Below, in pieces: positions 40,885 to 44,471 of a DNA stretch of 64,000 nt. Within the stretch, counting starts at the first letter, position 1. Every line of letters begins with the position of its first letter. The stretch spans positions 90,475 to 154,474 of the forward strand of contig CAVZNM010000005.1 of the NCBI GenBank assembly GCA_963776685.1. Reading direction: 5' to 3'. A program made the translations under genes and the position numbers. Under the pieces are notes generated by a model. It was not told the DNA's origin, searched no databases, and saw only the letters and a program-made list of their open reading frames with translations. The stretch comes from an uncultured Alphaproteobacteria bacterium. Lineage in GTDB: Bacteria > Pseudomonadota > Alphaproteobacteria > Rhizobiales > Aestuariivirgaceae.

Positions 40885-42335
40885 CCCGGCGGCGGCACGA
40901 AAGCGGCATAGTCGCGCTCGATCAGTTCGGCGAAACGGATCGAGGTGTAGTCGCCGTATTGCCGGGAGACGATTTGCACGCCCGACGGCAGGCCCTGCGG
41001 CGTGAGCCCGATGGGAGCAACCGTCGAGGGCAGATAGAAGCAGCCCGAATAGCCGGCCCAGAACAATTGATCGGTGGCCGGCACCTCCCTGCCATTGACC
41101 GGGATCGTTCGCTCATGCCGTTCGCCTACATGATCGTGCAGAAACGCCGCCGATGCCGCCGCCGGACAAAGCAGCACGTCCCAATCCTCGAAAAAGGCCT
41201 CCCACAAGAGGCGCATCTGGTGGCGGCGTTCGTTCACCATGAGCCACGAGCGGTGCGGCATCACATAGGCGCGCACCATTTGCGCGTAGTAGGTGTGGTC
41301 ATCGGGCGCGAATTCATCGACGTTGGCGGCATTGGCGGCAAATTCCTCTTCCGTCTGCCGCCGGCTCGTCGCCGACCGCAACAGCGCGATATAGACATCC
41401 ATCGCCTCGCGCGTCGAAAACTGCGGCCGGGCCGTCATCGACAGCTTCTTCGTCCGTTTGGCCAGAAACTGCGCCAGGCGCGCCAGCAAATCCTGCACCG
41501 GCTGATCGACGTCGCTGACCGGATCGGTCAGCATGACGGCGACGCGAAAGTCTTTGAAGCTCTTCTGCCGCGCCGGGGGCAGATGAAAACGCAGGCCCCG
41601 CGCATCCGGGCCGTCGCTGCCCACCAGCAGTTTCATCATCGCCGCCAGATCGCGCGCCGAACGCGCCAGCGGCCCTGCCACGGTAATGTCGGATGGCTGC
41701 ACGATGCCCGGCAGGAAATGGCCGCGATAGGGAACGACGTTGTAGGTCGGCTTATGGCCGTAAACGCCGCAATAATGCGCCGGGTTGCGGATCGAGGCGC
41801 CGATGTCGGAGCCGATTTCGAGCGCACTCATGCCGCTCGCCAGTGCCGCCGCCGAGCCGCCGGAAGAACCGCCCGGCGAGCGCGCAACATCCCACGGATT
41901 GTTGGTGGTGCCGTAAATTTCGTTGTAGCTCTGCCAATCGGCCAGCATCAGCGGCACATTGGTCTTGCCGTAGATGACGGCGCCGGCCTGCGTCAGCCGA
42001 TTGAGCGCCACGGCATCGGTCTTGGCGATATTGTCCTTGAAGCGGGGGTTCCCCCAGGTTGACGGCGTGCCGGTCCAGTCGAAGGATTCCTTTGCCGTCA
42101 TCGGCACGCCGTCGAAGGGACCGATGGGTCTGCCGCGTTTGAGGCGCCGGTCGGCGGCCGCCGCCGCGCGCCGGGCCCGGTCAATATCCGTGACGACAAT
42201 CGCATTGAGATTGTCGTTGTGACGGGCGTACTGGTCGAGACATAGGTCAAGCAGGGCACGGGCCGATATCTTGCGGGCGCGCAACAGCCGGGCGAGGTCC
42301 GTCGCGGAGCGGAATACGAGAGGCAAAGGGGCCAT
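40878..42335 (-). CDS. Amidase-signature family amidase
   Basis: KTNVP, GGSSGGSAAA and GSDIGASIRNPA motifs. Confidence 0.9.
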   Translation of the reverse strand: MAPLPLVFRSATDLARLLRARKISARALLDLCLDQYARHNDNLNAIVVTDIDRARRAAAAADRRLKRGRPIGPFDGVPMTAKESFDWTGTPSTWGNPRFKDNIAKTDAVALNRLTQAGAVIYGKTNVPLMLADWQSYNEIYGTTNNPWDVARSPGGSSGGSAAALASGMSALEIGSDIGASIRNPAHYCGVYGHKPTYNVVPYRGHFLPGIVQPSDITVAGPLARSARDLAAMMKLLVGSDGPDARGLRFHLPPARQKSFKDFRVAVMLTDPVSDVDQPVQDLLARLAQFLAKRTKKLSMTARPQFSTREAMDVYIALLRSATSRRQTEEEFAANAANVDEFAPDDHTYYAQMVRAYVMPHRSWLMVNERRHQMRLLWEAFFEDWDVLLCPAAASAAFLHDHVGERHERTIPVNGREVPATDQLFWAGYSGCFYLPSTVAPIGLTPQGLPSGVQIVSRQYGDYTSIRFAELIERDYAAFVPPPGY

Positions 42336-42454
42336 GGAATCGTCCTTTGCAGCGAGCCTAGCGGTGGTGCCGTCCGCTGGGAAGCTGCGTGATGCCGGAG
42401 AGGAGTCCACCGAAGCGCGAGCCTCGAAGCATCAGGGTGAGGGGAAGGTGGAGA

Positions 42455-42848
42455 TTTACAATTGTCAAACAGCGTTGGGCTTCAGCCATAGCTTCGCCCT
42501 TGGTGGAAGCAGCTATTCTGCTTCCGGGGTTGGTTCCTTCCCTTTTGGCAAAGAGAAGGGTTGCGCGGGCGCTGCCCGACGCGATGTGCCGATCCTGGTG
42601 TCAGGGACCGGCGGAGTGGCGCCTTTGAACCAGCGCCCACGCGCAGCGACTTTCCTCCGGCGGCTAGCTCTTGGAGCTCCGCTCTCGAGGAAGGCAACCC
42701 TAGCCATTTAAGGCGCGTGCCACCTAGTGACACGGGTCTAGCCGGAGGCCCCCGGGGATGATGGCACGTCCTCCACCACCCGCAGGCCTGCCCATCCGCC
42801 CCATCCTTGATCATCGTCATGACCGGGACCCCTTCCGGGATGGACGGG
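42455..42848 (-). ncRNA. Candidate large structured ncRNA or structured leader (about 390 nt)
   Basis: No credible ORF, at least 8 stems with G-U wobbles valid only on the minus strand, an upstream promoter with a LexA box, and a 3' boxA-like motif. Confidence 0.6.
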
Positions 42849-42851
42849 GAA

Positions 42852-42880
42852 TAATTAGAACATAATAGGAACATTGTCAA
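42852..42880 (-). promoter_or_regulatory. Sigma70-type promoter with alphaproteobacterial LexA box in the spacer
   Basis: Minus strand reads TTGACA-atGTTCctattatGTTC-TAATTA (17-nt spacer). GTTC-N7-GTTC lies at 42858-42872. Confidence 0.75.
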
Positions 42881-42910
42881 GAGGAAAAGCGGGTGGCGCG
42901 CAGTCGATAC

Positions 42911-44471
42911 CTAACTGACGCTGTCCGGCAGCTTTTCCTTGCGCTTGGCCATAAAGGCCAGAAGCTGCTCGTCGAGGCCGGGATCGAGCGCGCGGGGCTT
43001 CGTATTCGCGCAGCATCTTCTTCCACTGGTCTCGTTGGCGCGGGCGCGCTGCATCCTTTTCGCCGTCGTCGCGCCACTGCTCGTAGGAATTGTTGTCGGC
43101 GATGCTGCGAGCGCCAGAAGGCGTTCTCGAAATTGGCCTGCGTGTGGGCGCAGCCGAGGAAGTGCGAACCCGGGCCCACTTCGCGGATGGCATCGAGCGC
43201 CTGGCCGTTCTCGGAGAAATCGACGCCCTCGGCGAAGCGCTGGAACATGGTGAGCTGATCGGCGTCGATGATGAATTTCTCATAGCCGGACGACAAGGCC
43301 GCCTTCCAGCCAGCCCGCCGCATGCAGGCAGAAATTGACGCCGCCCAGCAACGTCGGCCACAGCGTATTGGCGCTCTCATGCGCCGCCTGCGCATCGGGA
43401 AGCTTCGAGGCGCACAGGCCGCCGCCCGAGCGGAAGGGAACGCCGAGGCGCCGCGCGAGCTGTGCCGCGCCGAAGAGCACATGCGCGGGCTCCGGCGTGC
43501 CGAAGGTGGGCGCGCCCGACTGCATCGAGATCGAGCTGGCAAAGGTGCCGAACACCACCGGCGCGCCCGGCCGGCAGAGCTGCGCGAAGGCCATGCCGAC
43601 GGAGGCTTCGGCCAGAATCTGGGTCAGCGTGCCGACCACGGTCACCGCCGACATGGCGCCCGACAGGATGAAGGGCGAGATCACCGTCGCCTGATTGGCG
43701 CGGGCATAGACCTTGAGCGCGCCCACCATGGTGCCGTCGAAGACCAGCGGCGAATTGGCGTTGATGAGATTGATCAGCACGCAGTTCTGGTCGACGAAAT
43801 CGTCGCCGAACACCATCTTCGCCATGGCGACCGAATCCTCGGCGCGCTCCGGCGCCGTGACCGAGCCCATGAAGGGCTTGTCGGAATAGCGGATGTGGCT
43901 GTAGACCATGTCGAGATGGCGCTTGGCCACCGGAATGTCGACCGGCTCGCACACCGTGCCGCCCGAATGATGCAAGCGACGGCGACATGTAGGCGAGCTT
44001 CACGAAATTGCGGAAATCCTCGATCGTCGCATAGCGCCGGCCCTCGTCGAGATTGCGGATGAAGGGCGGGCCATAGACCGGCGCGAAGATCGTGTTGTTG
44101 CCGCCGACCGTGACCGAGTGTTGCGGGGTTGCGCGCATACTGCGTGAATTCGCGCGGCGCCGTCTTGATCAGCGAGCGCACCAGGCCCTTGGGAAAGCGC
44201 ACCCGGTCGCCTTTGACATCGGCGCCGGCCTGCCTTCCACATGGCGAGCGCTTCGGCATCGTCGCGGAAATCGATGCCGATCTCCTGCAGCACCGTCTCG
44301 GCATTGTGCTCGATCAGCTCGAGCTGGTCGTCGGAGAAGGGCTCGTAGAGCGGGATCTTGCGGCGGATGAAGCCGGTCTGGTGCAACGACCGTGGAGGTG
44401 CGCGCGGCGCGGCGGGCATCGGCGCCGCCACGGCCGCGGCGGCCGGATGCTGCGGGCTGGACGTCGGTCAT
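42911..44471 (-). CDS. Trimethylamine methyltransferase (MttB/MtgB) family protein (frameshifted)
   Basis: GGTVCEP, NANSPL, SMQSGAPTFGTPE, RSGGGLCASKLPDAQA and HAAGWLEGG motifs. Confidence 0.88.

Follow-up and report, generated by a model that had tools for sequence, protein, structure and literature searches.

What kind of genetic element lies between an MttB-family gene and an amidase gene in the genome of an uncultured Aestuariivirgaceae bacterium? The window, the whole 64,000-nucleotide stretch of contig CAVZNM010000005.1 that was analysed, carries a candidate RNA element there, on the minus strand. A preliminary description had read it as a LexA-repressed, multi-domain RNA, possibly a stand-alone transcript of this locus. 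We find that this element is one protein-less copy of a repeated alphaproteobacterial cassette; the earlier reading overlooked its multicopy nature, its palindromic loop and its protein partner.

A structured RNA element with its own promoter

Every piece of the promoter reported for this locus is present in the sequence at its reported position. On the minus strand, TTGACA (42880-42875), the -35 hexamer of the element's own promoter, is followed by a 17-nt spacer and the -10 hexamer TAATTA (42857-42852), and the spacer holds a GTTC-N7-GTTC LexA box, GTTCCTATTATGTTC (42872-42858), such as a minority of family members have. A promoter scan of 42000-43300 returned one site against 0.3 expected, picking AATTAT with an 18-nt spacer. 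From the spacing, transcription is predicted to start at about 42846. Similarity between family members starts about 10-25 nt upstream of the -35 hexamer, inside a T-rich run.

Downstream, still on the minus strand, Domain I (42794-42849) is a long irregular 5' hairpin formed by helices 1-2 of the family consensus. Its loop hexamer UCAUGA (42817-42822), a palindrome of the kind that switches across copies, is a predicted intermolecular kissing site. The Domain II core (42751-42786) consists, as in the family consensus, of a CCUGCGGG ... CCCGGG helix with an ACGU loop (42766-42769). Family alignments place next a hairpin with a conserved CAYUA loop (42723-42729) and then a GCC-loop-GGC hairpin, together spanning 42703-42736. 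In the 3' domain (42563-42642), a GCGUGGGCGC / GCGCCCGCGC helix encloses a GCCGG / CCGGC hairpin (helices 7 and 9). The 3' hairpin (42505-42525, helix 10) shows both-sided changes in 7 of 8 pairs across 14 copies and is followed by a 3' end motif, GGCGAAGCUAUG (42487-42498), conserved in the family alignment. Beyond it lies GCUGUUUGACA (42463-42473), which we take to resemble boxA; such a motif occurs downstream in 26 of 71 wider loci among the matches listed, with none in the upstream control. A degenerate REP-like hairpin remnant (42405-42452) stands behind the window copy, which has no zinc-finger ORF there. An RNase P-like GAGGAAAGUC in the window copy is unconserved across the family and was rejected as a feature.

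The dense base-pairing described for this stretch is borne out by folding: the minus strand of 42455-42850 folds at -195 kcal/mol (z -4.44), with none of 100 shuffles equally stable, and the plus strand at -170.7. The 5' stem and the hairpins at 42757-42780, 42588-42612, 42536-42559 and 42505-42525 all appear in the fold. A long-range helix proposed between 42654-42667 and 42738-42748 can be written, yet falls outside the minimum free energy fold, the centroid and the family consensus. Many genes between 35000 and 50700, MttB included, are frameshifted, a pattern that fits indel errors from long-read sequencing; the assembly is 53% complete.

The fold is under selection

Across 14 full copies, 96% of cells pair and 20 of 74 pairs have changed on both sides, a level that none of 500 shuffles reached; these covariation figures are somewhat overstated, because the consensus structure was derived from the same 14-copy alignment and the copies are related. 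In slid controls, pairing falls to about 42%. The sense strand is more stable than the antisense in all 14 full copies, and one-sided changes are mostly G-C to G-U on the sense strand, in line with the G-U argument that had supported the direction of the promoter. Indels relative to the window copy break the frame in 130 of 150 cases, so the RNA contains no conserved ORF, as had been supposed. Judged by these substitution patterns, the fold is selected on the minus strand, the element's sense.

Among the matches listed, the Domain II loop covaries with the base that directly follows the palindrome on its 3' side: 94 of 108 loci can form the pair, which suggests a pseudoknot or a switch, less directly so for the window subtype. 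By eye, six copies (L115, L127, L136, L142, L157, L172) may form an H-type pseudoknot, its loop A-rich, just before the 3' end motif. The HDV-like, hairpin and VS ribozymes and the SRP Alu domain, compared in general layout and through Rfam, were set aside because no topology matched.

The element is a dispersed multicopy family

The window genome (G000) holds five copies, the window copy included. Among the others, L002 is internally deleted, L005 represents a second subtype, and L003 and a copy on C4 near 1128800 represent a third. L006, the orthologue of L002, is full length; L019 is likewise internally deleted. Matches by blastn occurred in 23 of 36 same-genus genomes, a few of which match only the MttB gene end, versus 0 of 24 genomes of other families, and one relative gave 24 matches to a query of one copy plus flanks. 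A covariance model of the 5' 149 nt found the family in 8 of the 120 other genomes drawn from the order; these belong to five families, and the figure is a lower bound from a first model with 25 candidates scored per genome. In a class-wide draw outside the order, 1 of 150 other genomes matched a second RNA model, again a lower bound (20 candidates scored per genome).

A pattern scan of named genomes found at least 119 loci. Titles among the matches listed include Tardiphaga, Bosea, Methyloceanibacter, Pseudolabrys, Pseudorhodoplanes, Rhodopseudomonas, Aestuariivirga and other alphaproteobacteria; one title falls outside Alphaproteobacteria/Hyphomicrobiales. With that second model, five chosen genomes yielded 21, 15, 11, 3 and 5 copies, and in another Hyphomicrobiales family, the one that includes G331, 23 of 41 genomes have 1-21 copies. 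The RNA family had no plasmid match. Ten viral sequences matched the pattern, of which L093, at a contig end, was the only one to score with the RNA model. Phage origin was rejected, the RNA being nearly missing from viral contigs and the ORF described below not found there; in the scans done, the RNA copies are not prophage-borne.

Rfam 15 returned no family at gathering score in the window. The element itself had no match in 11 loci at E ≤ 1 and none above gathering in 20 more at E ≤ 0.5, with OLE, GOLLD, ROOL and Rhizobiales-2 among the models compared, which agrees with the earlier failure to place it in a recognised family. No description of the family was found in the openly accessible literature and the few supplements covered. 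The BjsR5-7 RNAs of Bradyrhizobium gave no motif match in 12 of the 28 supplement files of PMC5082802. The cassette is apparently undescribed, although BjsR5-7, compared by motif in that part of the supplements, could still prove identical to it.

A palindromic loop switches sequence across copies

At its apex, the 5' hairpin has a loop of the form N-C-x-y-G-N. Among the matches listed, 112 of 119 loci could be parsed (7 were unparsed), and x and y are complementary in 106 of the 112, where chance would give about a quarter; the counts are AU 47, GC 22, CG 21, UA 16 and other 6. By a looser test, 101 of the 119 listed loci have a perfect hexamer palindrome, versus 23% in shuffles. In a 101-row alignment of listed matches, x-y is the top mutual-information pair, above all stem pairs. 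A rough tree from non-loop sequence of the matches listed implies at least 44 x-y changes, an approximate count because the tree was built on about 100 columns, with the palindrome kept in 100 of 105. Alternative hexamers in other copies include UCGCGA, UCCGGA, UCUAGA, ACCGGU, CUCGAG and GUCGAC, and several palindromes coexist within one genome.

Adjacent bases of one chain cannot pair with each other, and the covariation of x with y is therefore a signature of intermolecular kissing, a reading that the same signal in OLE and GOLLD supports. In those RNAs, according to PMC12286853, adjacent-base covariation marks symmetric kissing loops between molecules, resolved by cryo-EM. By sequence and by this analogy, the RNA likely pairs with a twin RNA through its palindromic loop. 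With four central palindromes and dozens of switches, the genomic signature of RNA-RNA dimerisation is unusually clean.

Two promoter types, and LexA boxes in a minority

Of 111 wider copies among the matches listed, 101 have a -35-like motif in front (TTGAC in 62, TTATCC in 38), and in most copies the promoter points at the opening base of the 5' stem. In the second promoter type, TTATCCCC occupies the -35 position. The spacer contains TTCCTA in 40 and TAGGA in 22 of the 111 wider copies listed; this recurrent half-site or palindrome between the -35 and -10 hexamers of many copies is perhaps another operator.

The LexA site itself is credible. In five of five genomes of the genus, a perfect GAAC-N7-GAAC lies upstream of recA, and the motif occurs at lexA with 0-1 mismatch in all five; in the window copy, the same motif as at recA overlaps the promoter. 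Conservation of the box did not hold up: it is perfect in 12 of 38 genus copies and in 5 of 111 wider copies among the matches listed, and in some Tardiphaga copies LexA boxes sit at a different position. Thus, what survives of the proposed LexA-repressed, multi-domain RNA is a minus-strand structured element with its own promoter, and what falls is SOS control as its defining property. Such control is plausible for the window copy and is not a family trait. Because the box lies in the promoter, DNA damage would likely induce the window copy and some others.

A Cys-rich ORF linked to the RNA

In complete copies, a Cys-rich ORF of 110-190 residues lies downstream of the RNA. Two copies of the window genome precede ORFs with C-x4-C-x-R-x3-C, one of which has 17 close and 61 profile homologues. 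The ORF is real, as median dN/dS is 0.5 over 35 pairs and the AlphaFold model of the homologue P0019 is confident (pLDDT 92). One ORF compared with Pfam, and four compared with PHROGs and NCBIfam, matched no family. Fold searches returned nothing clear (best fold Z 4.8), which is no proof that the fold is new. Cys, His, Arg, Trp and Pro make up the invariant residues, none of them acidic, and the conservation of Cys/His and Arg points to a product that would bind zinc and RNA.

The RNA and the ORF are tightly linked. ORF group A3 was found in 31 of 61 genus genomes; in the best 25 of its 37 loci, a full RNA match precedes the ORF on the same strand 20 times (one of these loci was itself in the RNA model), a partial match at a contig end twice, and no match 3 times. 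The divergent group A6 comprises 126 homologues and occurs in 37 of 201 genomes of another family, with the RNA upstream in 21 of the best 25 of 48 loci. Between the two groups, only the Cys motif aligns (hhalign probability 49%). The ORF had no plasmid match and was not found in viral contigs, and a metagenome scan with one ORF gave one weak locus.

Starting from the RNA, 40 unselected copies were taken from four genomes (20 of 21, 15 of 15, 2 of 3 and 3 of 11). The ORF is kept in 7 of the 40, 500-800 nt behind the promoter, and a stricter ORF pattern found none on the opposite strand. Protein-less copies are the majority (33 of 40) and are near-identical at unrelated sites within a genome; several stop at or soon after the ORF start. 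Among the matches listed, the ORF is clearly present in 4 of 80 pattern loci. Because 0 of 24 window-type copies in the genus have a Cys-motif ORF behind them, we infer the partner of the window subtype from its sister subtypes.

In the complete copy L005, a tRNA gene (L005:698-770) stands directly behind the Cys-rich ORF. The window genome also encodes two paralogous basic 225-residue proteins starting MDWARAIE (G000:C4:67310-67987, minus strand, and G000:C1:522614-523288, plus strand; L004, L295, L296). They have no Pfam, PHROG or NCBIfam family and share the two promoter types of the RNA family, one with a LexA box. This protein was not taken as the RNA's partner, because a search of 120 other genomes drawn from the order did not find it.

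Presence and absence of the element differ between relatives

In the closest relative, G164, whose amidase is 92% identical, the element is absent and the MttB-amidase gap is 133 nt, with only a REP-like hairpin; the amidase leader with its TAGGCT (42360-42355), earlier assigned to the amidase itself, is retained there. In more distant species, MttB directly abuts the next gene, a transporter gene. The same MttB site holds a related copy split by an insertion sequence in G005 and a different RNA subtype in G018. Both G164 and G024 lack an element at the L003 site, and since an ORF-start remnant persists in both, some empty sites look like losses. The idea of a stand-alone host RNA belonging to this locus gives way on two counts: the element is a dispersed repeat missing from the same site in the closest relative, and complete copies tie it to the downstream ORF.

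Copy ends are ragged by eye, and of the marks of a MITE, neither a clean target duplication nor terminal inverted repeats were seen, and no pristine pair of filled and empty sites was found among those compared. TTGACA stands at both ends of the window copy; in many relatives the two ends differ. In G330, two small genes lie between direct repeats (97.6%) of a 927-bp RNA+ORF unit, a composite-transposon-like arrangement (L356, G330:C2:1794500-1803500) whose enclosed pair we take to be nucleotidyltransferase-like and HEPN-type. Although it lies outside the predicted transcript, the promoter accompanies every copy, a point in favour of movement through a DNA step. No recurrent transposase was found among the neighbours of copies, and no reverse transcriptase among the recurrent neighbours of 80 loci in the matches listed. 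In five copy-rich genomes, RVT_1 was found in two and not in three, and Y1_Tnp, which the host of an IS200/IS605 or REP-RAYT non-autonomous element should encode, in one and not in four. The reverse transcriptase nearest to any copy is 3 kb off in a separate operon, with other genes between. That retron-like operon (L382:1984-4188, G076:C1) consists of three minus-strand genes, among them a reverse transcriptase of 321 residues and an ORF resembling a glycosylase.

Insertions cluster behind MttB or the neighbouring transporter gene (L027, L225, L235, L023, L229, L233), a hot spot occupied in different species by REP-like hairpins and small toxin-antitoxin-like pairs; from between MttB and the amidase, the transporter gene has been lost in both G000 and G164. 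At L034 (G005:C10) and L012 (G017:C122), an insertion sequence, IS1595-like by ORF reading, lies in the element's promoter or first bases. Insertion just behind co-oriented genes, hinted at by the genus loci, was unsupported in the wider set, where the preceding gene is on the same strand at 29 loci, on the opposite strand at 32 and missing at 16, among the matches listed.

Comparison with known systems

OLE, GOLLD and ROOL are, according to PMC12286853, multi-domain RNAs of unknown function, like the element, and in OLE and GOLLD adjacent loop bases covary between palindromes as they do here. The element differs in having no Rfam match, a shorter length, many dispersed chromosomal copies that are not prophage-borne in our scans, a dedicated downstream Cys-rich ORF, and all four central palindromes in use, several per genome. 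The dispersed intergenic repeats Br-REP1/2 (PMC5082802) and Rhizobiales-1 and -2 (PMC2864571) occur in the same order and often adjoin the element. As printed, they are 20-100 nt long and either short hairpins or unrelated motifs, whereas the element spans about 430 bp with a promoter, a multi-branch fold and an ORF partner. Rhizobiales-1 and -2 were also considered as the element itself and rejected, since their printed alignments differ.

Retrons, group II introns and DGRs have an RT gene in or beside the unit, which the element does not. Retroviral leaders carry a 6-base palindromic dimerisation initiation site near the 5' end, with exchangeable palindromes, and retroviruses encode a small basic zinc-binding nucleocapsid protein. 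The likeness to the element, a palindromic 6-base 5' loop upstream of a small basic, predicted zinc-binding protein, is an analogy only. The element is bacterial, the unit lacks reverse transcriptase, integrase, terminal repeats and capsid, and the ORF spaces its cysteines as C-x4-C-x5-C-x6/8-C, unlike retroviral CCHC knuckles. The gamma-150 RNA of Pseudomonas is reportedly a multicopy structured RNA with upstream LexA sites. It belongs to another host class and is shorter, the element has no Rfam match, and we know of no palindromic loop or ORF partner for gamma-150.

What the cassette may be

The analysis shows a multicopy family with a covarying fold, a switching palindrome, RNA-ORF linkage, presence and absence at orthologous sites, and a promoter in each copy. 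The reading we favour, at roughly even chances of being right, is a selfish RNA-protein cassette in which a dimerising RNA is handled by a zinc-finger protein, the window locus being a non-autonomous, LexA-wired copy. The promoter would likely drive a predicted folded RNA of about 380 nt. This RNA would dimerise through loop-loop contact, and different palindromes would separate co-resident subtypes. The basic Cys4 protein, a predicted zinc finger, could be an RNA chaperone or ribonucleoprotein partner and may also act in trans on protein-less copies. The cassette would spread as a selfish element through a DNA step by an enzyme that the searches above did not find, and the LexA box would wire the window copy and some others to DNA damage.

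A bolder form of this idea, in our view less likely than not, is a new class of minimal bacterial mobile element, built from a dimerising RNA plus a zinc-finger protein that resembles nucleocapsid and has a new fold. The palindrome would be its self-recognition code, protein-less copies would ride complete ones, some lineages would be SOS-wired, and the RNA may do part of the chemistry of spread.

Unlikely, in our judgement, is an RNA-protein toxin-antitoxin or addiction module, with a Cys-rich toxin kept in check by the RNA in front of it and protein-less copies serving as spare antitoxins. In the type III systems ToxIN, CptIN and TenpIN, a non-coding RNA upstream of an ORF of about 160 residues forms one unit. 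Here too the RNA sits upstream of a 110-190-residue ORF that evolves fast, and the same sites host TA-like small gene pairs, as judged from translations (L027, L225, L235, L005, L356). Against this, the alignment shows no tandem pseudoknot repeats, RNA-only copies dominate, the ORFs searched match neither a known fold nor any family in Pfam, PHROGs or NCBIfam, and no acidic residue joins its invariant Cys, His, Arg, Trp and Pro.

We give somewhat less credit to the RNA as a cis-acting 5' leader of the zinc-finger gene, an attenuator or autoregulatory site whose protein-less copies are decaying remnants. That the ORF is nearly always preceded by the RNA would fit, as would the ORF start region kept in several protein-less copies and the internal deletions in L002 and L019. 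Yet 33 of 40 copies are protein-less and near-identical at unrelated sites, and they retain the stems and the palindrome, where a plain leader needs no intermolecular loop.

Improbable, and ranked after the leader, is a host-serving, LexA-repressed, stand-alone SOS RNA amplified for dosage. The perfect spacer box here and in 12 of 38 genus copies, its identity with the motif at recA and the boxes elsewhere in some Tardiphaga copies speak for it; the 5 of 111 perfect boxes in listed wider copies, the patchy presence (0 to more than 20 copies among kin) and the site-to-site turnover speak against it. Least probable is a DNA-level REP- or MITE-like repeat, read by an enzyme as folded ssDNA with the RNA incidental: dispersed intergenic copies, often next to REP-like hairpins, and a promoter that moves with the unit agree with it, but in most copies that promoter points at the first base of the 5' stem, the G-U bias favours one strand, the palindrome varies freely, unlike a protein site, and no terminal inverted repeat was seen by eye.

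Significance for the Hyphomicrobiales

These results add a widespread, highly structured Hyphomicrobiales RNA family that is missing from Rfam and has a dedicated protein partner without a known family or fold match. To our knowledge, natural RNA oligomers are rare and their functions open. With the partner protein, the natural loop variants, the protein-less derivatives and cultured hosts that carry as many as 15 copies, Tardiphaga robiniae for one, function can be tested directly here, and the orthogonal loops could serve as RNA assembly parts. If mobile, the cassette encodes no recognisable transposase or reverse transcriptase for its spread, and it may be a new kind of selfish RNA-protein element.
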